Source of the DNA: an uncultured Planctomycetaceae bacterium
GTDB taxonomy: Bacteria; Planctomycetota; Planctomycetia; Planctomycetales; Planctomycetaceae
DNA: 64,000 nucleotides
Assembly (NCBI GenBank): GCA_963813715.1
Contig: CAWFAK010000007.1
Coordinates: forward strand, 704,001-768,000
Direction of reading: 5' to 3'
Part shown: positions 418-24,873 of the stretch, in pieces
Layout of the letters: every line of letters starts with the position of its first letter
Numbering within the stretch: position 1 is the stretch's first letter
Made by a program: the position numbers and the translations under genes
The notes under the pieces: model-generated
What the model was told of the DNA's origin: nothing
The model's input: the letters and a program-made list of their open reading frames with translations, nothing else
The model's database searches: none

Positions 418-3062
418 GTGACACAGGAACTACTCTACACGTCGGCAGCGCAAGGCTTGGACCCAGGGAGCCGCGGTTTTTGCACCGTTGTCCGCACGCG
501 GGGCATGCCGGCGCCGCTGGCACCGCTGCTTGGAGTCGCTGAGCGGTTATCGCCCAGCCTTTGCGCTGACCGACCCGCGTGCTGCCGCAAAACCCGGTCA
601 ACTATTCGCACGTGCGTGTGGCGGCCGGCGGAAAAACTATAGCGTCTTGTCGCGCGTGGCCGATTACGGTCTGGATTACAGTCAGCGGACCAACAAGATC
701 GCCCACCACATCGTGTTGGCAAGCGACGAGCGGCCCGAGGCCGGGCCTGCCTGGTTGCTGGCTCAACCCGGCTTTATGGACGCCCGCTGGGACGGCCAAC
801 CGCGCACGCTGCCAGCCGGACGCCGCGTACCGACCGGAGCCGAGCGGCCCACTGCGTGCCCCACCTGGGCCGCCGTCACGGGCGATGCCGGCTGGGCGGG
901 CGTGCTGGCGGAGAGCTGGCTCACGGGTACGGCTACCTACCTGATATTCGAGCCCGGGACCGACACGCTCGGGCTGATCCGCGAAGCCATCGCACTCTTG
1001 CCGCCACGCAAACGCTGGGAGGCCACTTTCGCGACCTATTACACCGGCATGCCCAGCAGCGCGACCTGCAGTTGCCGATGCGTCCTGACCGACTCGCAAG
1101 AACGCCATTCAGGCGCATCGCCTGCCGAATGTGCTGCGCATCGATTTGACGCAAAAGTTGCCCGCCGACCGAAGTGGCGACCTAGTCAATGTCGCCCGCA
1201 CGGGCCCCCTGAAAAGAACTCCCACCGGCCGTTCGCAGCCGGCGCCTGCTTCGCTGCCTCACACTTCCGAAAGCGAGAGCGTGCCGTTCGCGATCCCCTT
1301 GGCAGGCACGACGCCGAGAACGCGCGAGGGCATATTACTGCAAAATGTGCCTGCGGGGCCGCCTCCTCTCGAGCCACGCATCCGCAAAGTCGAAGACAAG
1401 AAACGCGTCCCCGTTTGGGTTTGGTTGATTGCGTCGCTCTCGGCCGCCGCAGTGGTTTTCGGTTCCATTTTTCTGTACGCCGTGAACCATCCACGGCAAG
1501 CGCCAATCCAAGTGGCAGGCGGTGATGCAACAATCGGCGAGGCCAAAAAACAGGCGCCTCAACCTGTGAACGCCGGCGAGGAAAACAAGAATAAAACGAC
1601 GGAGGAGCGGAAGGATCATAAAGCACCGGCGTCCGCGAAAGCTGTCGCCACGCCACCATCGTCGACGTCAGCGAGGACCAGCGTCGCCGCCAAGGCCGGA
1701 GCGGCCGGTCCCGAAGCTGCCAATCAAGCCTCACCCACGAACTCTACGGTCGCGAAAGACCCAAAATCGGTCGAACCCCTACCCTCCACATCCCAGTCGG
1801 CAAGCGGAAAGCCAAATCCCCAGTCGACGAGCAAACCGCTCACAGTGGCGGGCATTGCTGCAAATGCCGCTCGGCCGGACGACCCAAAGAAGCCTCCTAG
1901 GCCGCCAGCCCGTACGGATCCACGGGAGACTCAAAACCCGGCCCATGGTCTTAACGCTGCCAGCGCTCCCCTAAGGCTGCCAAGCGTCTTACTGTTGCCT
2001 TCAGACCTCAAGCCCAAACAAGAGGCTACGCTGATTGCGGGAGCGGACAGCCCGGGGCAATCACGTCCGTGGTCGCTGTCGCTTTGGCTCCCGAGCGACG
2101 GCAAACAGAGCCTCAAAGTGTCGAAAGGCTCCGATACCTCGGTCGCGCTTTGTCAGGCAGCAACCGGCTCGGACGATCTTGTCAGGTTTCGGTTGAATGA
2201 TCGGACGCGCGAAATCACGATCACAGCTTCGACTCCGAGAGCCGAGGCGATCAAAGCCTTGTACTTTTGTGTTTTGTGCGTCGGCCAGGGTCACGAGCGC
2301 AAGACGTTCCAATTCTTTCGCCCATCTGTTGCGGCACCCGGTTCTCCTGCCCCAGAACACAAGCGACCTTCCTGGACAATCCCGGTCTCTGGACCGATTC
2401 AAGAGATGCCTCCTCTTGCCGTGGAAGTCGCCACGGTTCAGTTAACAAGTAAGACGTCTCAAACGACGTACGCATTTCGTCCCGAGATGGCCCAGGACAA
2501 GAAAGGAGGAGCGCTGCTGGCCTCACTGATGTCGTCAGAACTCAACCAACAACTCCTTGCGGTCACCGGCTCCAAGTCCGAACGAGCAGACATCAACCTT
2601 GCTCTACATGTAAAACAAACTGCGACATCCGTCGATTTCTGGTTCGGCTCAGAGGATATGAAGAGGCTTTTCACAGCAGTCACGAATGTCCAGACCAGTC
2701 GCCTCATCGACATCATGGTCAACTACCGTGACCCGAGCCCCGACCAATTGAAAAAGCAACACGATGAAGCCGCTAGAAACATTAAGAGGCAAAAAGGCAA
2801 TGAACGGCAAAAGGTCAGCGCGGCTCTCAAGAGCTTTCGAGACAAGCTCCAGGAGCCGCTCGATCCGGCGAAGCTAAAGAGCTTTCAACGGATTCTTGGT
2901 GACCTCGATCGCCTGCAGAATGACCTCGAACGAACCGACGGATTGCAAAACGACCTCAACGCCGCAGTGCTTAAAGGCGCGCGGTTGTTCTATCACGTCA
3001 GTGACCAGGACGGCCAAATACAAAGAAACTATGTCGTCAAACTCGAGAGCGATCTAGACTGA
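418..3062 (+). CDS. GAP1-N2/GAP1-M-like protein with TM helix, Pro/Ala-rich linker and C-terminal extracytoplasmic domain (apparent frameshifts near 530, 590, 635 and 1110)
   Basis: GTG at 418 after AGGAC. Joining frames gives TQELLYTSAAQGLDPGSRGFCTVVRTRGM..ESLSGY..NPVNYSH..DYGLDYSQRTNKIAHHIVL (GAP1-N2-like), then EAIALLPPRKRWEATFATYY (GAP1-M-like), then ORF 1131..3062 with TM WVWLIASLSAAAVVFGSIFLYAV. Confidence 0.65.
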
Positions 3063-12576: not shown

Positions 12577-13179
12577 TCATGTGTCCGCACAAAATTCCCG
12601 ATCGATGGCAATCACCATCCGCGCGGTTTCGGGTAATTTCCGGCTGTTTTCTTTCGAGATTTTTTGCAGACGCTTGTACGCCTCTTCTTCGCCCAGCCGG
12701 CCGCGCCGCATCAGCACGCCCTTGGCGCGCTCGACCTGTTTTCGCTCTTCCAGCGACTGCCGCAACGCGGCCGCCATATCGCAAACAGCCCGATGCTCCC
12801 GAAAGCGGCGCATCGCCACGGCGACGGCCACTTCGAGATCGATCTGCTTGATGGGTTTGATCAGGTAGGCCAGCACGCTGGTGCGCAATGCCCGGCTGAT
12901 CAGTTCGGTTTCTCCAAACGAGGTCACCAGAATGACGGGCGTGGCTTGGCGCCGGTTGATCGTCGTCGCCGCCTCGATTCCGTCCACGCCCGGCATCTTC
13001 ACGTCGGTGACGATGAGATCCGGCGGACTCGTGGCGCACGCGTCGATCAATTCCTGCCCCGTGCTGCAACTGGCAGTCACGGTATGGCCCATTCCTTCCA
13101 GCAGATCTCGCACGAATTCGAGGATTGCGGGGTCGTCATCCGCGACGGCCACACGCAATCCGTCCCCCGAGGGAATCAT
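12577..13179 (-). CDS. ANTAR-domain response regulator (AmiR/NasT/PdtaR-like)
   Basis: Receiver motifs VADDD, DLIVTDVKMPGVDG, YLIKP; ANTAR motif LEERKQVERAKGVLM..EEEAYKRLQKIS. Confidence 0.9.
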   Translation of the reverse strand: MIPSGDGLRVAVADDDPAILEFVRDLLEGMGHTVTASCSTGQELIDACATSPPDLIVTDVKMPGVDGIEAATTINRRQATPVILVTSFGETELISRALRTSVLAYLIKPIKQIDLEVAVAVAMRRFREHRAVCDMAAALRQSLEERKQVERAKGVLMRRGRLGEEEAYKRLQKISKENSRKLPETARMVIAIDREFCADT

Positions 13180-14246
13180 GGAATCGCCCTTTTGAGGACA
13201 ACAACGACGGCCGCTCCCGGACCATCGCCAAAGAAGATTTCGCCGCCATGTGCTTCCACGATTTGCCTGGCGATCGTTAGCCCCAATCCAAGTCCACGCG
13301 GTTTGGTGGTGAAAAAGGGGACGAACACCATCTTCTTGTGCTCATCGGCGAGGCCGGGGCCGCGATCGCGGATGACGATCCGCAGAGCCGGCGATCCCGA
13401 AATCTCTGCCTCTTCGTACAACGCTTTGATCTCAGGACCGTCGGGACACGCGGCCAGCGAGTTCTCGAAGATGTTGCGAAACACCTGGCGGACGGCGAAA
13501 GCGTCGATCTCGCAACAGGTGTCGTCAGCCAGTTGCATTTCCAAAAGCTCGAGGTGCGGCATGTCCGGCTGCGTGAGCGCCTCCCTCCAAGCGGCGCGAA
13601 CGACGTTACGCGCATCGACCGTTAGGGGCTGCAGCACCCGCGGCCGCACGAATTCCAACACGGTTTCATGCAGACGATGAAGCTCCTCGGTCCCCGAGGC
13701 CAGCTTGGCGATCCCACACTGCACCTTGTCGACGTCGTGGGAATGCTTTTTCAGCTGGTGCACTGCCGCTTCCATGCGTTGCAACGAATTTCGGCTCTCG
13801 TGAGCGATTGTGGAGACGGCCTGCCCGATGGCCGCCAACCGCTCCATCAGTTCCCATTGAGTGGTGGCGCGGTCGTGCGACGTGTTGTCCTGCGCCAGCA
13901 AAGTCCAGAGCACGCGCCGCTCGAATCGCACCGGGGCGATCGTCGCCTGGACGGCAACCGAATGCCCGTCTTTCCGCAACAAGCGGAAAGGACGCGGGCT
14001 CTCGAGCTCGATGCCGAACCCCTCCGCCTCGTCACTTTGAATGGCAGCTAGAAACGAAAGCTCACATTCGCGCGGCAAGAGAGACAACATGTCGCGGCCA
14101 AGCAATTCGTTCGGGCCGTACAGCAGCAACCCCTCCGCGGCCGGGTTCGCCGCCTCGATCCGTCGATCTTCGCCGAACGTGACAATCGCGTCGTTGCCAG
14201 TCGAGCGGACTGAGTTCGCCAAAGGCAGTCTGAGAACGGAGCTCAT
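13176..14246 (-). CDS. Cytoplasmic PAS-domain sensor histidine kinase
   Basis: PAS (ANPAAEGLLLY..RKDG), H-box AHESRNSL, N-box NIFENS, DRGPG, PFFTTKPRGLGLGL. ATG at 14246; stop overlaps the regulator start. Confidence 0.85.
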   Translation of the reverse strand: MSSVLRLPLANSVRSTGNDAIVTFGEDRRIEAANPAAEGLLLYGPNELLGRDMLSLLPRECELSFLAAIQSDEAEGFGIELESPRPFRLLRKDGHSVAVQATIAPVRFERRVLWTLLAQDNTSHDRATTQWELMERLAAIGQAVSTIAHESRNSLQRMEAAVHQLKKHSHDVDKVQCGIAKLASGTEELHRLHETVLEFVRPRVLQPLTVDARNVVRAAWREALTQPDMPHLELLEMQLADDTCCEIDAFAVRQVFRNIFENSLAACPDGPEIKALYEEAEISGSPALRIVIRDRGPGLADEHKKMVFVPFFTTKPRGLGLGLTIARQIVEAHGGEIFFGDGPGAAVVVVLKRAIP

Positions 14247-14334
14247 AGTTCGTGTCAGCGTCCTGCGGCTCTTCGGGGCATAAGCATCGTGGAGGGTGAT
14301 TGTCCTGCTATGACTCAACCGTCCGTGCACGATT

Positions 14335-15960
14335 TCACTTGGAGATTCGGAACAAGTCGTCCGAGGGCGTGTCGTTGAAGTCGACGTACATTCGCGTAGT
14401 CTTCGCCCGATTTCCCGAGACGTCACGGAGAATGACCGTTGGGTACCAGAAGCCGCGCGGCGACTGGTCGAAATCCTTGAATCCAACGTCGGGAGGCTTA
14501 GACGCAGCGGCGATTTGCTCCGCACCTGCCGACGGGTCGCGATAGACGATCTTGACCGCGACACTGCCCATGCTGGGATTCAGCCAGTATGTCGCGTCCA
14601 GTGCAATTGGCTTCCGAATGGTTGGATCCAAAGAAACGTCCACCTTGATTAATTCCTGATTGCCAACCGTTTGATGGTTAACCTCAAAGTGGCGGTCTAG
14701 TGCCCTGAAAGGGAAGGTTGGACGGCAACACAGCTCAGGAACGTTAAGAGTCTGCCCCAGGAAGTCCGCCTGAGAATCCTCTTTCACCGGAAAGATCTGA
14801 AGAGGTCCGTCGCTGGAGACCTTCTCTCCCCATGTAAAAACGCCGATGGTGTGACCATCGCAAATTGCGACGGGGCTAAATCGAAATTGTTTCTTGTTCG
14901 CATGCCAGGCCTTCAGCGCCTCGTTTTGGTCCACGGGCAAAACGAATTGCGCGTCTGCGGGCTTGACGTCGTCTATGCGCCACTTATTACCCCGGCGCAG
15001 CACCCGTTTCGGATCGCACCGACTCAACGGCCGAGGGGTATCGAATCTCGCGGTGACGGACAACGCTGAATAGTCGTCGAAGCCCTCCCGGCCTTCTTGC
15101 AGCGTTTGAGCAATGTCCGGCAATTCACCCGATTCATCGACGTCCCTCGCTTGGACCCCGACTGGAATCCCCAGCGACGATCGGTCCGCCAAGCCCTTGA
15201 TTGGGTAGTCGAAGTAGCAGGTCGTCGTGTGCGACGCGGCTTCAGTGATCGCAAGAGAATACGGCAGTGAAGACCGCTTATCGATCGTGAGAACGAGCGT
15301 GATTGCCCCACGGTCGGCGGGCCGCACGACAATCTGATATTCGTCGCAGGGTTTTCCGTCGATCATTTGGCTTTTCAGACTCCATCGCTCGATCCGCTCG
15401 TCCGGCAACAGCGACGGAGCAGAGGGAGATCGCCGAAATACCGCGGCTAGGTTTGATACGGACGAGAGTTCCTGCGTCAGTCGCGCGTTCCCTGGCCGAA
15501 CGGCACGGTAAAGGATTTTGCGCTTCTCGTCATAACGTAAGAACACATTGTTCGTGTAATCGAAGAGCAAAGCGGTCGTCGATAGCCTGCCTCCGATCAC
15601 GTCCAGACCCGGCGATACCCACAACTCGCCTTTTTCGACGTTGTCTCGCACGATGCGCGCGTGAATGCACGCTTGCGCACGGGCCCTCCGGATCGCAGAC
15701 GCCCAGGCCGGTTCGCTGTTGAAAAACCAAACGGTCCCCAAGACCACTGCCGATAGGCCAACCGCAAAGACTGATGCGAGCATGATTCGATGTTTCGAGC
15801 GCATGCGGAGGGGCTGGACAGCCACGGCCACGCTTAGCAGTCGACTCCGCAAATCTGCGGCGTACTCCGCCGACGGGCCGGACCGCACTCGGCTTTCGGA
15901 AAGCGCCGTCTTCAGCACTTCCATTTCCTCCGCGTCAAATTCGTCGGGCCGAGTGCTCAT
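14335..15960 (-). CDS. Putative anti-sigma factor: single TM with a large periplasmic LolA/RseB-like region
   Basis: Coupled (ATGA-type overlap) to the ECF sigma gene. Short cytoplasmic helix (PSAEYAADLRSRLL), TM, then beta-rich region (IDGKPCDEY..LTIDKRSSLP; YWLNPSMG..GFWYPT..PSDDLF). Confidence 0.65.
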   Translation of the reverse strand: MSTRPDEFDAEEMEVLKTALSESRVRSGPSAEYAADLRSRLLSVAVAVQPLRMRSKHRIMLASVFAVGLSAVVLGTVWFFNSEPAWASAIRRARAQACIHARIVRDNVEKGELWVSPGLDVIGGRLSTTALLFDYTNNVFLRYDEKRKILYRAVRPGNARLTQELSSVSNLAAVFRRSPSAPSLLPDERIERWSLKSQMIDGKPCDEYQIVVRPADRGAITLVLTIDKRSSLPYSLAITEAASHTTTCYFDYPIKGLADRSSLGIPVGVQARDVDESGELPDIAQTLQEGREGFDDYSALSVTARFDTPRPLSRCDPKRVLRRGNKWRIDDVKPADAQFVLPVDQNEALKAWHANKKQFRFSPVAICDGHTIGVFTWGEKVSSDGPLQIFPVKEDSQADFLGQTLNVPELCCRPTFPFRALDRHFEVNHQTVGNQELIKVDVSLDPTIRKPIALDATYWLNPSMGSVAVKIVYRDPSAGAEQIAAASKPPDVGFKDFDQSPRGFWYPTVILRDVSGNRAKTTRMYVDFNDTPSDDLFRISK

Positions 15961-16544
15961 AGGCGTGCACCCCCCTGTTGAGGTGCTGGTGCAAAATAAG
16001 GCCCCAGCAACGTCCGCAAGCGCGTCCGAGCGCGCGATAGCGACGACTCGACGGCTTTAGCCGTTGTTTTCATCGCCGTCGCTATCTCCTGAACCGAACG
16101 ACCATCGACATATTTCTGTCGCAGGACCACCTGGTGAGATTGTGGAATGGCCGTGAACGCCGCCCGCACGAGTTGCAATCGCTCGACACGCTCCATCACC
16201 TCTTGCGGAAGAAGGAGGGCGTCGTCAGCCAGTTCGATCGACTCCGCGTTCTCCGATACAAAGGCGCTCGACAAGCGGCGAAAATGCTGCGCCACTTGCA
16301 ATCTGGCAATGCCAAACAGCCAATCGCGCAACTCGCCTCTCGCAGGATCGAACCCTTTAATGCTGGAAATCGCCTGCAGCCAGACTTCCTGGTTCAGGTC
16401 CTCGCATAACGTCCTGTCGCCGTCCACGAGATGGCTGACGAAGGCGTAGATTTCGTTCAGATGCGCGTCATACAACGCCCTCCACGCTGCTCGATCGCGA
16501 CGTGCGAGCAATTGCAGAAACGCGTCATGCGACGAAGCTGGCAT
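15957..16544 (-). CDS. ECF (sigma-70 family) RNA polymerase sigma factor
   Basis: AWRALYD, EDLNQEVWL, WLFGIAR (region 2); DGRSVQEIA..AVESSLSRARTRL (region 4). Confidence 0.9.
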   Translation of the reverse strand: MPASSHDAFLQLLARRDRAAWRALYDAHLNEIYAFVSHLVDGDRTLCEDLNQEVWLQAISSIKGFDPARGELRDWLFGIARLQVAQHFRRLSSAFVSENAESIELADDALLLPQEVMERVERLQLVRAAFTAIPQSHQVVLRQKYVDGRSVQEIATAMKTTAKAVESSLSRARTRLRTLLGPYFAPAPQQGGARL

Positions 16545-16740
16545 TTGGCTGTCGTACTCGGCTGCTGCTGATCGGTCGACCAGACTCTATTTGCGCGAGA
16601 GCGCGGAATCCTTCGCACAATTTACGAAAAAGACGAAAGTCGGTCGCATCCCGGCTTATCCGTGCAAACCGGCTCCGTCAGGAGACTTCCCACAGGTAGC
16701 TAGGCGTACATGCGGGTAAACACTCACCCGAGGTCTTCTT

Positions 16741-18052
16741 CTAGCTGGGCGCCGGCGATCGTCGGCGACGCCACAAAAGTCCAGTCCCCAGGACGACCAG
16801 TGCCCCGGCATTAAGCAACAGCAAGTGGCGCCAGATGCCACGGCCACCTACTCCGGCAGGAAAGGGCTGTATTTCTCCATTGATAATCGGATTGGCCCGC
16901 GCGATTGCCTCGTCGAGCAAGTGTTCGCCGTGCGGAACGAAATAGGACCTATTGAGAATCAGATCCTGGACGTTAGTGCCGGGGGGGAAGTCGAGCTCGA
17001 AAACGTCATCCGGAACATTGTTGACGTTGATGTTCTCGATCGTAACGGTGTGCACCTCCGTCAGCATCCCCTGCGTATTCGCGGGCTCCAGCGATCCTGC
17101 AAAATCGAGCCGATAACACCGGTGCGGCAGCCAGATGGTGTCACCATATTGGCGCAAATCCTTGTTGGCATAGACGAACGCAAGCACGGGCATGCTGCTG
17201 AGGTTCCGCATTTGAAACCACAGCCGACGCCGCATCGCGAAGCCATTCTCCGTATCGATCCAGATGGTGTCGGCCCCGTTCGTGACCACGTGACACGGAA
17301 AACCGTCGACCTCCTGGAGAGTCGGTAGCACTCGATAGACGGATGGCAAGCTCAGTGCGGTAGGCACGTACCAGGCCGACTCACGTTGTCGAGCTGCGTT
17401 GGCCCCCGTCGGAATTGAAATTGAGTCGAAGTACCACACCAGCCGTGAATCCACCGCGTCAAGTTTCGCTGGATGGATGTGGCCAAGCGAACGGGTTGGC
17501 TCGAAGGCTTTCATTTGCGTGCCATTGAAGGCGTAATCGAACTCCGGCAATGGCCTCGTTCGCCGCTTACTCGCTGAGTTCTCTGCAGTCTTAATCGCAA
17601 ATCGGCCGGGCGTGGTCTCGCGAATATGGGTGAACCGCTTCTCGCCCTTCATCGCGACGCGCGCTTTCGAACGAGAAGTTAGCGGGGACCGCATGCTTTT
17701 GTCGCTTTTGCGAAATCACACGAGCCGTTTCAACCTGCCTCTGTAATGAATATTGGAACGACACTTCGATACTCTCGACGCGGCCCGCCAAGCCATCTGG
17801 CCGTCGTAGAGTTCCTTTAGGGAATGCGTGGCTTTTCTGTTCGCTTGCCGCACGTTTTGCCATTCGAGGTGATCCAGCCCTCGTTGGACTTCTTCGTAAC
17901 TACCGACTTGTCCGGAAAGGCCGACGTATCGCGTCGGCGACTTCCAATCTTGCGCGTGCGGTGACAAACCCGTCCAACATGACCACCAGGACCCCCATGC
18001 CGCCAAGCTTGAGAATCCCCAACCATGCCAATCGTCTCGCCTCGACTCCCAT
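16741..18052 (-). CDS. Exported LolA-like beta-rich protein with C-terminal TM anchor and basic tail (about 3 apparent frameshifts in the 5' part)
   Basis: ATG ~18052 gives a signal-like MGVEARRLAWLGILKLGGMGVLVV. The reading continues through three frames into ORF 16741..17694 (EVDGFPCHVV..IWIDTENGFAMRR..INVNNVPDDVFELDFPPGT..LLLLNAGALVVLGTGLLWRRRR). Confidence 0.6.
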
Positions 18053-18158
18053 CGGCCCGCACTCCTCCAGGTTTCCGATTCGCTTTTTGGCGCACTGACA
18101 GACTTGTTCGCCTTCAACAGCCCGGTTGCAGTATTTCAGCGGACTCGCGAGGGCTTGG

Positions 18159-19373
18159 CTATTTCCGGTCGCGAGACGGTCTCATCCGCTCGTCGGAATT
18201 GCGCGCGACCTCTGCCAGAACGGTCGGGTGATCCGTCAACAAGGCCCGTTGGAGCACGCAGGCGGCGTGCGAATAAGCACAGTAGTCCCTTTGGATAGTC
18301 GTCGAGTCCGATCGCTTGAGCGCATCGATCAAAAACTGGAGGGCGTGCGAAACACAAACGCTCGATGGCCTCAAAGAAACGGGCACGATCTGGATCCACT
18401 CGAGCTGATGTCCGGTAATCCGCACCAGGTCCTCGCCGCGAATCGTCTCGGCGGCTCGGTTGTCCGTGACAGTCGAAACACGGTTCGCCCAAAGAGGACT
18501 CCAGGCGCCGTTGGGCAGCTGCGAGCTTTCGAGCAAGCGACTGGATCGCGACAAGTAGACCTCGCATCGTCGCCGGAGATCCGCCGAGATACTGCGGGAG
18601 GCGTGTCGCAATAGGAAGGCCAGCGTCAATTGCTTGTGAGTTCCTCCACAGGAACCGCTGTCGAGCGGCAGCGCAAGAATGGCCTCAGCCATCGATTCAT
18701 AGGAACAGGTCTCACCGAAGCGATTTTCCCACTGCGGTTCGTCCGGCAAATATCCGCAGAAGGCGACCAGCGACCAACAGACTTCCTGGCTCGCGTCAAA
18801 ACTGCGGCGCGACGCATCGAGGAGTTCGCCGACCGTAAACGAGCCGAAATTGCTCTCAACGGATAAGCCCAAAGGGACACCAATCTCCGCACACGTAGCG
18901 AGGAATTGGTCGACATGATGTTCGTACTCCCAGTGGTCCTGGACATTGGGGGCGGTGCGCTGCCTCACATCCCAGCCATAGGGGGAACGGAAGAACAAAG
19001 GCGGCGACCTGGGAAACGTTCGACGAAAGTCTGCCTGACCGAGCACGCGACCCACTTCGCGCTGCAATTCGAGGTTGGCTGGAAAGGCACCCGCCAGACC
19101 CTCGAAGCGCCAGCGGTGAAAGTAATCCGACGCTCGTAGCGGCTGAGTCACGACGTATTTGGTAATAGCCTCCGCAGCCGAGACCTTCACCTCGGCGGCG
19201 AAAATGGGATTCGGCGAGGGTGGAGCGATTTGCCCAAGTTCTGTCGGGCTCTTGGGAACTCCGGAAGGACCGAGCCACATTTTGACCCCTAGAGTCGCGG
19301 CGACTCCCACGACAGCCATAGCGACAACTAAAGATGCCACCCGGTTAGTGGTCCTCAACCTGTCGGAGATCAC
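18159..19373 (-). CDS. Membrane-anchored putative alpha/alpha-toroid (prenyltransferase/cyclase-like) protein
   Basis: GTG overlaps the upstream stop. N-terminal TM, then motifs EHHVDQFLA, SCGGTH, QLPNGAW (QW-like), TGHQLEW, CAYSHA. Confidence 0.55.
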   Translation of the reverse strand: MISDRLRTTNRVASLVVAMAVVGVAATLGVKMWLGPSGVPKSPTELGQIAPPSPNPIFAAEVKVSAAEAITKYVVTQPLRASDYFHRWRFEGLAGAFPANLELQREVGRVLGQADFRRTFPRSPPLFFRSPYGWDVRQRTAPNVQDHWEYEHHVDQFLATCAEIGVPLGLSVESNFGSFTVGELLDASRRSFDASQEVCWSLVAFCGYLPDEPQWENRFGETCSYESMAEAILALPLDSGSCGGTHKQLTLAFLLRHASRSISADLRRRCEVYLSRSSRLLESSQLPNGAWSPLWANRVSTVTDNRAAETIRGEDLVRITGHQLEWIQIVPVSLRPSSVCVSHALQFLIDALKRSDSTTIQRDYCAYSHAACVLQRALLTDHPTVLAEVARNSDERMRPSRDRK

Positions 19374-20227
19374 GCGCGGTGACCTCCGGGCGCCGGATCC
19401 GCGGGCAGAATGGACACGCGGATTGGGTATGTTAAGACCTCGCCGTCGACCGTAACCCGGACCGGCAACAGAACGTCCTGCCGCTTTTGAGCGACGTTGT
19501 CCTGCGGATTGACTCCCAGCGTGAACGAGCACTCTCGTCGCACATAATTTGACGTTTCGACGGACGGCCCAACGCGGATGTCCTGGACGACGAGTACGGA
19601 TTCCAGTCCGGTCCCGCCCAGTGGCACATCAACCTTTGGCTCGCTCGAAGAGGCCTTGAGAAACAGGGTGCCGACGATCGACGCGGTTCGCGCGACCTTG
19701 GCACGGCCGCCGATCATGTACGTGTAGTTTGGAAAATTGGCGCCGAGTTCGATGGCGTGGACACTGAGCGCTTCCGCCCAGGACCCGCCCTCTGCCTCGA
19801 CGTAAACCCGTGCATCCGCCGGGCCGGCGTGGCGCGGCCTGGACCGCATCATCATATGCACACTGGTCGATGCGCCCGCGACGAGCGTCTCCTGTTCCAA
19901 GCGCGCTTCGGTGCACCGACAAGTCGGCGATCCGAGATGCAACCGAACCGTCGAGTTACCCTGATTTTCGATGCGGAAAAGCCCCTCGGCAGCGCCGTCA
20001 CGCGGCAACACACCAAGATCGGCTTCGGTATTCCACGCAACCAGCCGGAGTGCATCTGGCGATGGTGTTCTCGCGACGATTCTGTCAGCGGACGACGCCG
20101 ATCGTTGAACGGAGCGGCCGACATTCGCCGGCAGAGCCGAGCATCCCAATGTCAGACAGCTGACTAACAGACTGGCGAGCGATTGGCGCGGCGCCGCAAA
20201 AACGCAGGTCGATGGCAAAGCGCCCAA
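19370..20227 (-). CDS. DUF1573-like Ig-fold lipoprotein (start uncertain)
   Basis: Lipobox-like LLVSCLTLGC; DLGVLP..FRIENQGNSTVRL..PTCRCT motif typical of DUF1573. Confidence 0.65.
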   Translation of the reverse strand: MGALPSTCVFAAPRQSLASLLVSCLTLGCSALPANVGRSVQRSASSADRIVARTPSPDALRLVAWNTEADLGVLPRDGAAEGLFRIENQGNSTVRLHLGSPTCRCTEARLEQETLVAGASTSVHMMMRSRPRHAGPADARVYVEAEGGSWAEALSVHAIELGANFPNYTYMIGGRAKVARTASIVGTLFLKASSSEPKVDVPLGGTGLESVLVVQDIRVGPSVETSNYVRRECSFTLGVNPQDNVAQKRQDVLLPVRVTVDGEVLTYPIRVSILPADPAPGGHRA

Positions 20228-20853
20228 CGTGCGAGCGGAAAGCCGCCAATCGACACCGACGCTGCGATGACACACCACAGAGCGACTTCCAACCTGCGAT
20301 GCGAAGACATCTTGCGCGATTCGGGCAAGATCAGATAACCACTCCAACAGCGGACGAATTGACTGCGAGACACCGTTTCGATCGAAGCGGCATAGTTCGG
20401 TTCGATGTAGCGCACTGAACGGTCATCAATCTGCAGCACGAGCAGGAAGTGCCCGATGGCATTGTTGGTTTCGCGACGGGGCAAGACGTGCGCGATTAGT
20501 GGAGTGGCGAAATGATCGAGATCCCGCGGTTTCGCTCGCAAAACCGTTGCCGAAACCCCCAGTGCCGCTAATCCCTCTTGTAGGCCAAGCAAGGAACTCC
20601 CGCCTTTTTCGATCGGAATAGCGGCAACGGCGTCGTCGTAGGTGATTTCGCTACCAAGAAGGCGTGCCAGCATATAACCGCAGGCCACGCCGCAGCTTTG
20701 GGCTTCGCGCCAATGGTGATTATGCGCTGCCCCCCGTGCATCGACCTGACGAGAACCGCCAGTACTCGCCTCTCCGTGAGTTCGAATGAAGGTGATTGCA
20801 CTTGCGACGATTGCAATCAGAGCCCAGCGGCGATGGAAGGTCGTAGAAAGCAT
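20164..20853 (-). CDS. Stand-alone C39-like cysteine peptidase with N-terminal signal and C-terminal TM
   Basis: QSCGVAC (catalytic Cys), GSSLLGL, PLIAH..GHFLLV..VRYIEPN, FVRCWSGYLI. No ABC-transporter domains. Confidence 0.8.
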   Translation of the reverse strand: MLSTTFHRRWALIAIVASAITFIRTHGEASTGGSRQVDARGAAHNHHWREAQSCGVACGYMLARLLGSEITYDDAVAAIPIEKGGSSLLGLQEGLAALGVSATVLRAKPRDLDHFATPLIAHVLPRRETNNAIGHFLLVLQIDDRSVRYIEPNYAASIETVSRSQFVRCWSGYLILPESRKMSSHRRLEVALWCVIAASVSIGGFPLARWALCHRPAFLRRRANRSPVC

Positions 20854-20960
20854 GAGAGCGGCTCGGCGGCTAGGCAGACAGTATTTCTGAGGTCGGCTCT
20901 GGGCAATTCAATAACGCCGTTACCAACCAGCAAGCATGCCACGCGATATGGGGGACCTTC

Positions 20961-21407
20961 TCAAGTCCCACTGCATCCCTGTTGGTCGAGATCAAAAGGC
21001 GCCGGACCGCACTCGACACTTGAGGAATTCAGGCATTGGCAGCAAGGCATGATCACTCCCGTAACCGAGCAAAACGTTTCGGTGCAAGTTGCTTGCGTCG
21101 CCGAGTCACACGCGTCTTGCACCAACGCGCCAGTAAATGTCCCGGATCCGCCATAGCTCGAGGTGGCACCGCACGCATATGAACATAATCCGTCGCAGTC
21201 CGAAGTCGCAGATGTGCAGGTGTCAGTCGCAGAATCCGTGCAAGCGCTATTCGACGTCGATTGATACGAGCCACACTGCCCTCCGCGAATGCTCGCCGCG
21301 GTCGTGGCTGAAACCTCGACGACGTCCCCCGGCAATCGATCCGCTGACGGGAGAATGGCAAGGGCCGCAGATGCGAGGGCAAAGGCAAAGACTGAGACGC
21401 GAGACAT
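20961..21407 (-). CDS. Secreted Cys/Ser/Thr-rich precursor protein with double-glycine-type leader
   Basis: GAGGAG RBS; Sec-like signal MSRVSVFAFALASAALAIL; EVSATTAASIRGG| motif; 105-aa core with 14 Cys. Confidence 0.8.
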   Translation of the reverse strand: MSRVSVFAFALASAALAILPSADRLPGDVVEVSATTAASIRGGQCGSYQSTSNSACTDSATDTCTSATSDCDGLCSYACGATSSYGGSGTFTGALVQDACDSATQATCTETFCSVTGVIMPCCQCLNSSSVECGPAPFDLDQQGCSGT

Positions 21408-21760
21408 TTTTCTACTCCTCCAGAAACCGAAGTTCCTTACGGATCGTCAAATCTTGGAGCACGTAGGCAGTCCACTGACGCGGTAGCCACCGTTCAGCCG
21501 AGCGCAATGGCACGACGTTCGACGGTCGAGGCGTCAACGAAATCTCGGTTGGATCGGAACTCAGCTAATGATCCAGGCGTAGATCGCCCGGAGCATTGGT
21601 GATTCCTATTCCTGCGCAAAGGCCGCGCACGCTTTGCCGGCGCCTTGGACAAGGCTCGGCGGCACGAAGATGCGCTCATCCGAAAGAAGCAGCCCGCGGC
21701 GACGACCAACCAGGGTCGTTCGCGCCATTTCCGTCCAGCCATTGGTCCGGAACTGGGAAC

Positions 21761-21810
21761 ATCCTGATGCGATGATCTCGGAATGTCAAACAAAAACGAC
21801 AAAAAAATCG
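21761..21810 (-). promoter_or_regulatory. Candidate sigma-70 promoter for the precursor operon
   Basis: TTGACA (21789-21784)-N17-CAGGAT (21766-21761), preceded by T-tracts resembling an UP element. Confidence 0.4.
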
Positions 21811-21919
21811 GGGAAGCTGGAAAGTTATCGAGCAATCATTTTCCACCCACCATCACGAGCGACGACCAACACTCCACTGGATTCCACGAGATGCCAATTG
21901 TTCGGAGAGCGTCTCCAAT

Positions 21920-22189
21920 CTACTGATCACCCGGATGAGTTGACCGCGCAACAACATCGACGATGTCGCCGATGGTGCGCAAACCGATCGCCTGTTCGTC
22001 CGAGATCTGCATCCGCCACCGGTTCTCCAGCTCGAACCGCAACTCGAGAAGATCCAAAGACGCCAGGCCAACGTCCTCGATGATGTGTGATCCTTCCGTG
22101 AGATCAGTGAGCTTGGCTCGACCGTTGGAGGCGAGAGCTAACGCCGGCTTCAGTTGCTCGATGATCCGACATCGTTCGTCTTCGCCCAT
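21920..22189 (-). CDS. Acyl carrier protein
   Basis: Small acidic protein with EDVGLASLDLLELRFELE..ISDEQA..LRTIGDIVD (phosphopantetheine Ser in LASLD). Confidence 0.85.
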   Translation of the reverse strand: MGEDERCRIIEQLKPALALASNGRAKLTDLTEGSHIIEDVGLASLDLLELRFELENRWRMQISDEQAIGLRTIGDIVDVVARSTHPGDQ

Positions 22190-22343
22190 TGATGCAAATC
22201 CAGTCACAGATTAAGTTCCTGCCCGCGCGGTCGGGAACTCGTTCGAATGAGCCCGGTAGTATTCAAATCCTACCCCGCGCATAATTCAACGACCTCGCCT
22301 CGCTTGAAACTCGCCCCATCGTGGGACACGGCCACTCCTCGCC

Positions 22344-23768
22344 ATGCCGTTCAATTCCCTGGTTTTCCTCCTGTTCTTCCTGATCGTGGCACTCGTGCAC
22401 TCCCTGCCGCTGCCGGTGATCGTCCGCAAGCTTAACTTACTGATCGCGAGCTACGTGTTCTACGCGGCCTGGGACGTGCGCTATCCCCTGCTGTTGGCCT
22501 TCTCCACGCTGGTGAACTTTGGTGCCGCCGCTCTCATTCAAAATTGCGAAGGAAAGACTCAGACACGGCGCACGGTGCTGTGGATCAGCGTGCTTTTAAA
22601 CTTCGGTCTGCTGGCCTGCTTTAAGTATGGCAATGAGTTTCTCTCGGCCTGGGGACTGCTGGCAGACCGACTGCGAATCGCTGAACCTCCGCAGGTTACG
22701 ATTCTGCTGCCAATCGGACTGTCGTTCTTCACGTTTCAGGCCATGTCCTACACGATTGACGTCTATCGCCGCCAATTCCGACCGACGTCGTTGTTGGACC
22801 TGGCGATCTTTGGCTCGTTCTTCCCCGTGCTCCTGGCCGGGCCGATTTTGCGAGCCGGGCAGTTCATTCCGCAGTGCACCCCGCCGCGACGGGCCACGGG
22901 TCGTGAGTTCTGCTGGGGACTCTCGCTGCTCACCCTGGGCCTGTTCTTGAAGGTCACGCTAGCCGATCATTTGCTTGCGCCGATCGCACAACAGGTGTAC
23001 GACCTCAGTCTGCGACCCGACACGCTCAGCTCCTGGACAGGCACACTGGTCTTCGCGGCTCAGGACTATTGCGACTTCGCGGGCTATTCGACGTGTGCGA
23101 TGGGCATTGGCCTATGCCTTGGCTTCGTGCTGCCGGCCAACTTCCGCTCCCCATTGGCATCGATCGGCTTTCGCGATGTATGGCAGCGCTGGCATATCAC
23201 GCTCGTCGTCTGGATGCGCGACTATGTCTTCAATCCTCTAGGCGGCGTCTTCAAAGGATATGCCCGCGCCGCACTCAATGTGATAATCGTGATGCTCCTC
23301 ATCGGAGTTTGGCACGGCGCGACGGCCACCTTTTTGATCTTTGGCTTTCTGCACGGATCGTTCTTGATCGGCGAGACATTGCTGCAACGTACGCGGCTGC
23401 GTCGACTGCCTGTCTGGGCAACGCCGTTCGGGAAGTTCGTCCTCTGGGCGGTCACTATCATGCTGTGCCTGGTCGCGTTCGTCTTCTATCGGGCGGCCAA
23501 CCTCGAGCAGGCTCGTTGGATATTGGCGTCCATGGCCGGCTTCCCCAGCGGTGTCGGGAGCTTCGGCCTGACGGATCACGATCTGTTGATCGGACTCGTC
23601 ACTGTCGAGTGTCTGATCGTCGCCCACTGGGTCGTGCGCAACCAGAATCTCGAAACGGCCGTCGCACGCATCCCTTGGTGGAGCGTTTCGTTCGGACTCG
23701 CGGCGATGTTGGTGGCCATCACACTGAGTTCGGGCGAATCGCAGACCTTTTTGTATTTTCAGTTCTGA
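22344..23768 (+). CDS. MBOAT family O-acyltransferase (AlgI/DltB-like)
   Basis: MPFNSLVFLLFF, ASYVFYAAWD, LPIGLSFFTFQAMSYTIDVYR, YCDFAGYS, WQRWHITL, IGVWHGA, FLYFQF. Confidence 0.92.
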   Translation: MPFNSLVFLLFFLIVALVHSLPLPVIVRKLNLLIASYVFYAAWDVRYPLLLAFSTLVNFGAAALIQNCEGKTQTRRTVLWISVLLNFGLLACFKYGNEFLSAWGLLADRLRIAEPPQVTILLPIGLSFFTFQAMSYTIDVYRRQFRPTSLLDLAIFGSFFPVLLAGPILRAGQFIPQCTPPRRATGREFCWGLSLLTLGLFLKVTLADHLLAPIAQQVYDLSLRPDTLSSWTGTLVFAAQDYCDFAGYSTCAMGIGLCLGFVLPANFRSPLASIGFRDVWQRWHITLVVWMRDYVFNPLGGVFKGYARAALNVIIVMLLIGVWHGATATFLIFGFLHGSFLIGETLLQRTRLRRLPVWATPFGKFVLWAVTIMLCLVAFVFYRAANLEQARWILASMAGFPSGVGSFGLTDHDLLIGLVTVECLIVAHWVVRNQNLETAVARIPWWSVSFGLAAMLVAITLSSGESQTFLYFQF

Positions 23769-23810
23769 GAGTTTTCCGCTGCTCCAAACTGTCATGACCT
23801 CAACGGACTC

Positions 23811-24873
23811 ATGAGTTCATCCGCAACGACGCCCGGGACAACTCCGACCACGCCGTCCGGCACGGCGCGCGAGGACACGTCGCGACGGTTGCCGGAAGCG
23901 CGGGTCTACCTCTTGGGTCTCGTACTGTTCGTCGGGATGATCGGTGCGCTGGAGGTATACTGGCGGGGACGAGCGTTCGAACCCAACGTTCCGGATTCCC
24001 CGGACCTGTGGGCCTATCACTGGTCCCGAGTCGTCGGCAACGATCCCAATCTGATCGTCGCCATCGGCACGTCGCGCATTCGCACCGCTGTGCGGCCGGA
24101 CGTGATTCAGGAGCGTCTCCCTTCCCAACGACTAATTCAACTGGGAGTGAACGGGCCCTCCGGATCGCTCGGTCTACTGGCCGAAATCAGTCGCATTCCG
24201 CATTTCCGCGGTCTCGTTCTCTGCGACTTGCTTCCGCCCCTGATGGCACCCGAGCAAGGGCGTGAACAGGTCGCCATGGCTCGTAGGCCGAATACCACGG
24301 CACACACTTTGAATACCTACTTGCGTTCGTTGCTGTGTGACCGACTGGTCGTCCTCAACTCGGCATTATCCGTTCGCAATTGGTTTGCACAGCGCGACTC
24401 GTTTCGTCCGGAGAGTGTCGGTCCGCGCCTGCGGGTCCACGCGGATCGGACTCTCGAGATTAGTTATCCCACGGACGAAGCGCTCGAAGACGATTCGTGA
24501 GAACCGTTTTCGCGACTACGCCGGCCGCTACTCAAAGGCCCGTCGTTACAAGAACATGGACGAATTCCGGGAAGCGATCCGCGACGTGGCCGACTCGGTG
24601 GCCCGCATAAAACAAAACGGCGGCAAGGTCGTGTTCTTGCGGTTACCAGCAGCCGGCGCCCGACTGCAACTCGAAGAAGCGACCTATCCTTCTGCGCTCT
24701 ATTTCGGGGTGTTGGCAGAAACAACTTCCGCGCCCTGGATCGACTTTCGCGAGCTCTCGCACGAAGACGATCTCGACTGCCCCGATGAGTCACATCTATC
24801 CGCGGACTCCGCCCCGGTCTTTACAAGTCGCCTCGTCGAAAGGCTGCGCCGCGGCTCGCTCCTGGGCCAATAG
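23811..24873 (+). CDS. Membrane-anchored SGNH/DltD-AlgJ-like protein (apparent frameshift near 24490)
   Basis: N-terminal TM, IGTSR (block I), and in the shifted frame GGKVVFLRLP and CPDESHL (DxxH). Directly follows the MBOAT gene. Confidence 0.7.

Follow-up and report, generated by a model that had tools for sequence, protein, structure and literature searches.

A Sec-targeted, double-glycine, cysteine-rich precursor beside a predicted outward-facing C39-DUF1573 protease in a planctomycete: a candidate for two-step maturation outside the cytoplasm

The literature treats double-glycine (GG) leaders and Sec signals as alternative routes, and C39 peptidases as the cytoplasmic part of an ATP-binding cassette (ABC) exporter (PMC10885120; this source and the two that follow are cited for the portions of their text that were available). 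For the LahT150 C39 protease, the leader's Val-4, its Leu-7 and its Leu-12 are described as docking in a hydrophobic groove (available text of PMC6363468), and the Pseudomonas Fap amyloid system includes a Sec-exported C39 peptidase, FapD, that is active in the periplasm (available text of PMC5557850). Here we analyse a 64,000-nucleotide stretch of DNA from an uncultured Planctomycetaceae bacterium (GCA_963813715.1, contig CAWFAK010000007.1, positions 704,001 to 768,000; hereafter the window, with coordinates counted from its first nucleotide), in which a 148-residue precursor appears to carry a Sec-type segment and a GG leader in series ahead of a Cys-rich core, and is encoded next to a C39 peptidase fused to a DUF1573 domain. 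On a modest balance of the sequence evidence we judge it probable that the precursor is a pre-pro-protein whose maturation takes two steps at the outer face of the cytoplasmic membrane, export by Sec being followed by GG cleavage in the periplasm. Our literature searches, which ran without subscription journals or supplements, returned no account of Sec-plus-GG precursors or of C39-DUF1573 proteins ('DUF1573' with 'C39' gave 0 papers), and FapD was the sole periplasmic C39 that they found.

The precursor is encoded by an open reading frame (ORF) at 20961..21407 on the minus strand, the strand of every module gene described below, with an ATG start and a Shine-Dalgarno-like GGAGGAG run 7-13 nt 5' of it. 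Its first part, residues 1-22 (21342..21407), is predicted by hydropathy to be an N-terminal Sec-type signal or signal-anchor, composed of MSR and 16-17 hydrophobic residues; residues 4-20 are the sole strongly hydrophobic stretch of the protein (Kyte-Doolittle 2.2-2.35), Arg3 precedes them, and the same M-[ST]-R-hydrophobic pattern recurs in the aligned homologues. No Tat (twin-arginine) motif of the RR-x-F-L-K type was seen in the precursor. The second part, residues 23-43 (21279..21341), is a double-glycine pro-leader, DRLPGDVVEVSATTAASIRGG, assigned on its conservation over 25 homologues, of which residues 31-43 read EVSATTAASIRGG and end in IRGG. The third part, residues 44-148 with the stop codon (20961..21278), is an acidic, Cys-rich core of 105 residues that its composition and Cys conservation mark as the predicted mature product (10.4 kDa). 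The core has 14 Cys (at 45, 56, 64, 71, 75, 79, 100, 108, 113, 122, 123, 125, 133 and 145), 8 Asp, 2 Glu, 32 Ser plus Thr and 11 Gly, and neither Lys nor Arg (0 of each). An earlier note, made from the letters of the window alone, had described just such a protein, with a hydrophobic N-terminus, an IRGG leader and a 105-residue core of 14 Cys lacking Lys and Arg, and that description is borne out. Its argument that an acidic core free of Lys and Arg does not suit a classical cationic bacteriocin seems reasonable from the composition, and the even number of Cys, together with their near-invariance, would fit seven disulfides.

Database searches yielded 23 homologues of the precursor at E<=0.01 (among 5.8 billion clustered proteins) and, at a greater distance, 6 additional cluster representatives at E<=0.001 (out of 1.84 billion proteins). 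Conservation was read from an alignment of 25 precursor sequences (A2), whose identity to the window protein falls as low as 28% and to which the counts that follow refer. Both G42 and G43 are invariant (25/25), and numbered back from the end of the leader the conserved positions are G-1 and G-2 (25/25 each), I or V at -4 (25/25), A at -7 (24/25) and V or L at -12 (25/25), with R at -3 in 21/25 and E at -8 in 14/25. The leader residues that lie between the hydrophobic segment and about position -14 vary freely. On the other side of the GG, the core starts with Q at +1 in 21 and C at +2 in 23 of the 25 sequences; 11 Cys are invariant and two more at least 90% conserved, 14 Cys are present in 22/25, and a core without Lys or Arg is found in 19/25. 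The earlier note had named loss of the IRGG motif among homologues as what would count against its proposal of two leaders in series; the motif withstands that challenge, because the homologues conserve it (GG in 25/25 and I/V at -4 in 25/25), and the proposal is further strengthened by the adjoining Peptidase_C39 gene, whose product has a predicted outside topology. An alternative TTG start at Leu25, which would leave a classical signal-less leader, was considered and rejected: the homologues do not conserve this codon, and 25/25 of them have the N-terminal hydrophobic segment.

The arrangement of these parts is beyond chance. A scan of the window for ORFs with a hydrophobic N-terminus, hydrophobic residues at -12, -7 and -4, GG, and a core with at least 4 Cys matched one ORF, the precursor itself; the reversed sequence gave no match to the same pattern, nor did any of 30 block shuffles (0/30), and a looser pattern gave a single match apiece in 2 of the 30 shuffles. 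Among 300 other genomes of the order the precursor family was found in 3, each of them from the same genus (3 of 7 congeners). In a sample of the phylum that comprised 401 genomes, counting the window's own, the sole match outside that genome covered 36 residues at E 0.002 and was set aside. No paralogue of the precursor was found in its own genome, where the other matches had E>=0.2.

The strongest evidence, overlooked in the earlier note, is the Peptidase_C39 gene directly downstream of the precursor. Its product matches PF03412 at residues 50-180 (E 2.7e-18, with 66.5 bits where the cut-off is 22, and 64.2 bits for the intact protein of the related locus L006), and the sequence that follows matches PF07610, DUF1573 (E 1e-7, with 32.3 bits where the cut-off is 26.1, and 31.3 bits over residues 275-365 of the intact L006 protein). 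In the window the C39 ORF (20164-20853) ends after 229 residues and the DUF1573 ORF continues in another frame, yet the two form one ORF of about 486-496 residues in loci L005-L010 (six contigs, near-duplicates included) and in L035. Compared with the otherwise identical L007, and also with L008, the window has one base missing between 20185 and 20186, within a GC-repeat run; because the window assembly carries other such breaks, we read the split as a probable assembly indel. We accordingly describe the fusion in two parts, the first (20186..20853) with a hydrophobic segment, the Peptidase_C39 domain and a transmembrane helix, and the second (19370..20185) with an Arg-rich loop, another transmembrane helix, the DUF1573 Ig-like domain and a C-terminal beta-rich region. 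Elsewhere in the window, the gene for a protein of ~440 residues is spread over several frames (16741-18117), and ORFs 23811-24500 and 24337-24873 overlap where their L005 counterpart is one ORF of 345 residues; a frameshift in the DUF1573 part is seen as well in the single-contig assembly of congener G205.

The C39 domain aligns to chains of PCAT1 (E 8.7e-6), so that its Cys54 and His135 coincide with the catalytic Cys and His; both residues are kept in all five sequences of alignment A4 that cover them (5/5). Its dN/dS (ratio of nonsynonymous to synonymous divergence) of 0.10 between L006 and L008 indicates purifying selection. With ~490 residues, DUF1573 at its C-terminus and no ABC domains, the fusion protein scores only 29.7 bits against TIGR01193, for which the cut-off is 523.85. 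A tblastn search with the fusion protease against 50,697 phage records gave no match.

Judged by hydropathy and charge, the fusion protein opens with a positive N-terminus and a hydrophobic segment, after which come the C39 domain, a transmembrane helix, a basic loop, a second helix and DUF1573. The first helix after the C39 domain is found in L008, L005 and L035 and falls below the scan threshold in L006; in L006, L008 and L005 the loop between the helices is free of acidic residues and carries a charge of +4 to +5, and in L035 it carries +3/-1. By the positive-inside rule, the C39 and DUF1573 domains are both predicted to lie outside the cytoplasm. An outside C39 domain is what the order of Sec first and GG second requires, and the predicted position matches a substrate delivered by Sec, unlike the cytoplasmic C39 of ABC exporters. 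A Pfam scan of the 63 window ORFs of at least 230 residues recovered no ABC, HlyD, Lan, radical-SAM or YcaO gene, in agreement with the earlier note's observation that LanB, LanM and radical-SAM genes are missing from the window. In the genome to which the window belongs (82.6% complete), C39 was matched just twice, by open frames that measure 247 and 289 residues, and no C39-ABC exporter was found in it at that completeness. A second signal-bearing short C39 protein of 263 residues, with the canonical Gln six residues before its Cys, is encoded on contig 5 of the same genome (~1,472,600-1,473,400; L089 6633-7424), and tblastn found none of the module genes in the 14-kb stretch around it.

The same design, with other cores, recurs in two further genera. 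In G004, from another genus of the family and with 43% GC, which makes its ORF calls clean, an operon encodes a homologue of the ~404-residue protein of our locus (described below), a 122-residue precursor, a 395-residue C39 protein and two more secreted proteins. The precursor (locus L055) has a hydrophobic N-terminus, then VSAAEAATILGG, then an unrelated, basic core with 8 Cys; the C39 protein (Pfam C39 E 1.9e-24) has the signal-C39-helix-basic loop-helix layout of the window fusion; and the homologue of the ~404-residue protein lies directly upstream of the precursor (26% identity, E 9e-17). In G692 (locus L079) a 112-residue precursor with a signal, ...AIAEELVGG and an unrelated 7-Cys core is encoded directly upstream of a 243-residue outward-facing C39 protein. 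The leaders of the window, G004 and G692 have V-12, A-7, I/L-4 and GG in common. At L079 (721-2133) two C39-type genes stand in tandem after the GG precursor; the product of the second, with 225 residues (PF03412 E 3.4e-6), lacks the catalytic His and could serve as a non-catalytic, C39-like partner.

Of the 121 genomes of the taxonomic family, 55 contain PF03412. When the 30 best loci were inspected for a signal-bearing, GG and Cys-rich neighbour within 1.5 kb, none was found beside ABC-type C39 genes (0/14), against 3/16 beside short C39 genes, two of the three being the precursor family itself. In L038, L084 and L087, too, a DUF1573 gene comes after a short C39 gene, from which it is separate. 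Polytopic membrane proteins of 154-159 residues are encoded after short C39/DUF1573-type genes in G515 (L025/L057) and G351 (L020/L058); judged by eye, these look like the MauE/DoxX type. In contrast to the Sec-bearing precursors, a classical signal-less GG-leader peptide (...SVNGG, with a 45-residue core of 4 Cys) is encoded beside an ABC-type C39 protein of ~810 residues in G420 (L017 2385-2954).

Taken in sequence, the proposed maturation would run as follows. Residues ~1-22 would send the 148-residue precursor through the Sec translocon, and the pro-leader of ~21 residues would then present V-12, A-7, I-4 and G-2 G-1 to the C39 domain of the neighbouring gene's product. This membrane-anchored C39-DUF1573 fusion, predicted to face the periplasm, would cut after Gly43, as the motif, the adjacency of the genes and the predicted topology suggest. 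The released core of 105 residues would start at Gln44, where cyclisation to pyroglutamate is possible, and would fold in the oxidising periplasm with up to seven disulfides into an acidic 10.4-kDa protein free of Lys and Arg. Its calculated monoisotopic mass is 10,395.98 Da with seven disulfides and 10,378.96 Da with pyroglutamate at the N-terminus as well, whereas a product cut by signal peptidase alone would have ~12.5 kDa. Most likely the mature product serves as a strain-specific extracytoplasmic effector, and it could be either a signal read by an anti-sigma factor or a non-cationic antagonistic protein.

Several observations weigh against two-step maturation and temper our confidence in it. 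The leader has a small residue, Ala, at -7 and not Leu. In the peptidase, the invariant Glu151 stands in the triad position held by Asp in ComA, LahT and PCAT1, and Trp48 stands in place of the Gln that precedes the catalytic Cys by six residues, as a Trp also does in the G004 protein; the role of that Gln is itself doubted (available text of PMC6363468). The AlphaFold2 model of the precursor, built on 25 sequences, is unusable, with a mean pLDDT (predicted local distance difference test) of 40.4 and a pTM (predicted template modelling score) of 0.28. Of the 16 short C39 loci, 13 have no precursor of this kind within 1.5 kb, which means that a C39 protein facing outward does not necessarily act on a GG-tagged neighbour. 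No substrate is known for FapD, and the authors of its study call the periplasmic C39 class uncharacterised (available text of PMC5557850). Every related locus of sufficient length keeps the gene order precursor, C39-DUF1573, ~404-residue protein, ~440-residue protein, extracytoplasmic function (ECF) sigma factor and 541-residue protein, but this synteny by itself is weak evidence because all of the loci come from one genus in which the whole region is collinear. Finally, cleavage of the window-clade precursor by signal peptidase I is uncertain: its n- and h-regions are clear by hydropathy, and the sole A-x-A-like site in that clade has Pro at -3 (ILPSA↓D).

That last point recommends an alternative in which the N-terminus is never cleaved but serves as a signal-anchor that holds the core in the periplasm, so that the membrane-bound C39 would be the only protease involved and would shed the core at the GG. 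Tethering both protease and substrate to the membrane would also favour their meeting. In most of the other homologues, on the other hand, residues ~21-23 offer an acceptable site of the A-x-G or A-x-A type (ALG↓Y and TSTA↓N are examples), and we regard a permanent anchor as unlikely, if far from negligible. Quite unlikely, in our estimation, is that the GG is not a cleavage site at all, the precursor being a plain Sec-secreted Cys-rich protein and the C39-DUF1573 protein acting elsewhere, or as a chaperone or dock. FapD, which has no known GG-leader substrate (available text of PMC5557850), the non-canonical triad with Glu for Asp and no Gln at -6, and the second C39-like gene of L079, which shows that versions lacking the catalytic His exist in such loci, can all be cited for it. 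It would leave unexplained why the GG and positions -4, -7 and -12 are invariant over a family whose residues from the signal to -14 vary freely, why the same leader is found on two unrelated cores beside such peptidases, and why Cys54 and His135 are kept in 5/5 covering sequences.

Comparison with L008, a locus from a near-identical strain, reveals that the six genes of the module coincide with an island of divergence. DNA identity between the two is 96-100% in the flanks and 60-90% within the island (~21,430 to ~14,300), whose limits are the first codons of the precursor and the stop of the 541-residue protein's gene. Synonymous divergence (dS) is 0.37-1.5 in the island against 0.014-0.023 in the flanks, and island dN/dS is 0.13-0.27. 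The highest dS values belong to the precursor core (1.54) and to the part of the 541-residue protein that lies outside the membrane (1.43), the other genes having 0.37-0.75. This pattern of dS and dN/dS points to an old allele exchanged as a unit under purifying selection, and not to a fast-evolving region; on this sequence evidence the six-gene unit is inherited and exchanged as one block. Positive selection on the precursor core was considered and rejected (dN/dS 0.13). The four congeners without a precursor have weak partial matches only (E 1e-4 or weaker) to the C39 part and to the ~440-residue protein, paralogues of the ~404-residue protein that are only 24-27% identical, and, in one genome, a single 25%-identical match to the 541-residue protein. 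In G193 (contig 21, L052), where the flanking proteins are 90-99% identical to those of the window, a deletion of ~11 kb relative to window ~12,900-24,200 runs from inside an ANTAR response-regulator gene to inside the gene at 23811 and takes with it the module, a PAS histidine kinase and the MBOAT and acyl-carrier genes described next.

Upstream of the precursor lie an acyl-carrier-like protein gene (21920-22207, minus strand; NCBIfam acyl-carrier protein (ACP) models E 2e-11, below cut-off), a DltB-like MBOAT gene (22344-23768, plus strand; PF03062 E 5e-22, and TIGR04091 at 147 bits, below cut-off) and a gene without a family match (23811-24873, plus strand), a layout that is like a Dlt/Alg-type O-acylation set. 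The MBOAT/ACP pair falls outside the island; it is truncated in L008 and absent from L005, both of which have the precursor. O-acylation, which the earlier note had thought compatible with the Ser/Thr-rich core, was therefore rejected on linkage, as the position of MBOAT/ACP outside the co-diverging module removes its basis.

The third gene of the module (18159..19373) encodes the ~404-residue protein ('p457'), which comprises an N-terminal hydrophobic anchor and, in an AlphaFold2 model with mean pLDDT 81 and pTM 0.78, an (alpha/alpha)6-toroid domain. By sequence it matches nothing in Pfam, NCBIfam or PDB; its profile retrieved only squalene-hopene cyclase from PDB (E 0.3), the Pfam squalene-hopene cyclase model run on the window's own genome did not match its locus, and all 58 of its database relatives (58/58) are annotated 'hypothetical'. 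The best fold match of the model is the GH105 chain 4xuv_B (Z 17.8, root-mean-square deviation 3.5 A over 269 residues, VIA-align), with GH88, terpene cyclases and thioester domains coming next; these matches together span Z 13-18 and identities of 5-14%, and none stands out. A Foldseek search with the model returned nothing at E<=0.001. Ten residues are invariant over 35 sequences (H153, Q156, E197, W200, C242, G244, H246, Q285, H322 and E325), and the protein may be an enzyme or a binding protein that acts outside the cytoplasm.

The toroid protein is what lends some colour to the possibility of a pathway resembling those of ribosomally synthesised and post-translationally modified peptides, in which it, or the MBOAT/ACP pair, would modify Ser, Thr or Cys of the core before release. 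It accompanies the precursor in two genera, and its invariant His, Cys and Glu are suggestive of a catalytic or metal site; LanC cyclases, too, are alpha/alpha toroids. We nevertheless think such modification improbable: the 63 scanned ORFs include no Lan, radical-SAM or YcaO family (which also leaves without a candidate enzyme the thioether chemistry that the earlier note had entertained), the fold search gives only a generic toroid at Z 13-18 with no standout match, MBOAT and ACP are outside the island and missing or truncated in L005 and L008, and a paralogous toroid branch is present in genomes that lack the precursor. The classical cytoplasmic route, with no export signal at the N-terminus, a cytoplasmic C39 and a separate ABC exporter for the cut core, is the rule for all characterised GG-leader peptides (available text of PMC10885120 and PMC6363468) but is hardly credible here, as the 63 scanned window ORFs include no ABC or HlyD gene, no long open frame of the genome (82.6% complete) was found to contain a C39, the distribution of charge places the C39 domain outside, and classical leaders begin at Met1 without a hydrophobic segment, as does the PCAT-linked peptide of L017.

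The ~440-residue protein (homologue 'p317'; 16741..18052), with hydrophobic segments at both ends, is frameshifted in the window and intact in L006, L008, L005, L035 and L034, in open frames of 440-480 residues from stop to stop. It has no Pfam match and no similarity to the 541-residue protein, and is weakly similar to neighbours of other outward-facing C39 genes (E 6e-7 to 8e-7 for L025/L057; a weak pairwise E of 0.004 for a 428-residue protein of L055). Still inside the island, the next gene (15957..16544) encodes a 195-residue ECF-type sigma factor (Sigma70_r2 E 1.5e-12, Sigma70_r4_2 E 1.2e-7), and the start of the last gene (14335..15960) overlaps its stop. The 541-residue product of that gene has no family match; it consists of a cytoplasmic N-terminus of ~55 residues, a transmembrane helix at 59-75 and an outside domain of ~460 residues, and its position and single-helix topology make it a putative anti-sigma factor.

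The oldest alleles of the island are those of the core and of this outside domain (dS 1.5 and 1.4), as would be predicted for matched, strain-specific pairs of ligand and receptor. One speculative interpretation, which we put forward as an outside chance, is that the island is a pherotype-like system of cell-to-cell signalling with a new design, in which the C39 peptidase would release a disulfide-knotted, protease-resistant 10-kDa ligand that is sensed by the outside domain of the 541-residue protein and activates the ECF sigma factor. Similar divergence islands are shown by bacteriocin/immunity loci.

All five lineages conserve a non-coding block of ~80 nt (window 21626-21703), ~220-300 nt 5' of the precursor ATG, and they do so even at precursor identities of just ~55%. 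The block can form an imperfect hairpin of ~50 nt with little covariation (1 compensated pair), and may be a regulatory site or an element of the 5' untranslated region; a small ORF within it was considered and rejected, since no frame is open in all five lineages. An Rfam search of 20800-22400 gave no match, a sigma-70 promoter scan of 14000-22400 gave 0 sites with uninformative terminator-like sites, and no shared ECF-type promoter motif was seen by eye. Far from the module and unrelated to the precursor, the window also encodes (488-1525, plus strand) a protein with GAP1-N2 and GAP1-M domains of GTPase-associated protein 1 (E 1e-12 and 5e-11).

The interest of the locus lies first in the juxtaposition of a predicted outward-facing C39 peptidase with a GG-tagged, Sec-targeted substrate, which recurs with unrelated cores and so offers a directly testable substrate-enzyme pair for the class. 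Its new elements are a family of acidic 14-Cys cores, the C39-DUF1573 fusion, a recurrent toroid partner, and a six-gene island tied to an ECF sigma/anti-sigma pair; if that tie is functional, it would represent a new type of input for ECF signalling. The locus further suggests that the phylum Planctomycetota, in which secreted peptides are little studied, has a family of secreted proteins rich in disulfides, and a GG-specific protease of the periplasm might find use in traceless removal of tags in that compartment.

In its pattern of divergence, the locus compares with polymorphic pheromone loci such as comQXP of Bacillus and pneumococcal comCDE, where sharply bounded, old allelic divergence extends over peptide, processing enzyme and sensor. 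The likeness is a bounded block of divergence between near-identical flanks; the difference is that the sensor in the window would be an ECF anti-sigma factor and not a histidine kinase.

In its peptidase, the locus bears a likeness to FapD, also a C39-family protein without an ABC domain, which is Sec-exported and periplasmic (available text of PMC5557850), an export and location that for the window protein are predictions only. FapD differs in being soluble, in lacking DUF1573, in belonging to an amyloid-secretion operon and in having no known GG-leader substrate (available text of PMC5557850), whereas the window protease adjoins a GG-tagged one; Pfam scans of the neighbouring window genes turned up neither an amyloid nor a porin family. 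Cytolysin and lichenicidin resemble the proposed scheme in being cleaved twice in succession at the N-terminus, once outside the cell, but in the reverse order: there the GG is cut first, inside the cell on the PCAT, and a secreted serine protease trims the product afterwards (available text of PMC10885120), while in the window Sec would act first and GG cleavage second.

With the PCAT/AMS systems (ComA, PCAT1, LahT) the locus shares the PF03412 peptidase, the GG with hydrophobic residues at -4, -7 and -12, and the adjoining substrate gene (available text of PMC6363468 and PMC10885120). Set against the same available text, the window system is without an ABC transporter and has a C39 domain that is predicted to be periplasmic and fused to DUF1573, with Glu for the triad Asp and Trp for the Gln six residues before the Cys; its substrate bears a Sec-type signal before the leader, and the core is a protein of 105 residues and not a short peptide. 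Nor does the precursor fit the double-glycine leader class as usually drawn, in which a signal-less leader starts at Met1 and a dedicated ABC transporter carries out the export, for here a hydrophobic segment of 16-17 residues comes first. Because there is no ABC domain and the substrate carries a Sec signal, we do not count the window system as a member of PCAT/AMS; judged by its sequences, it would work like the leader removal of PCAT/AMS, relocated to the membrane's opposite face and no longer coupled to transport.

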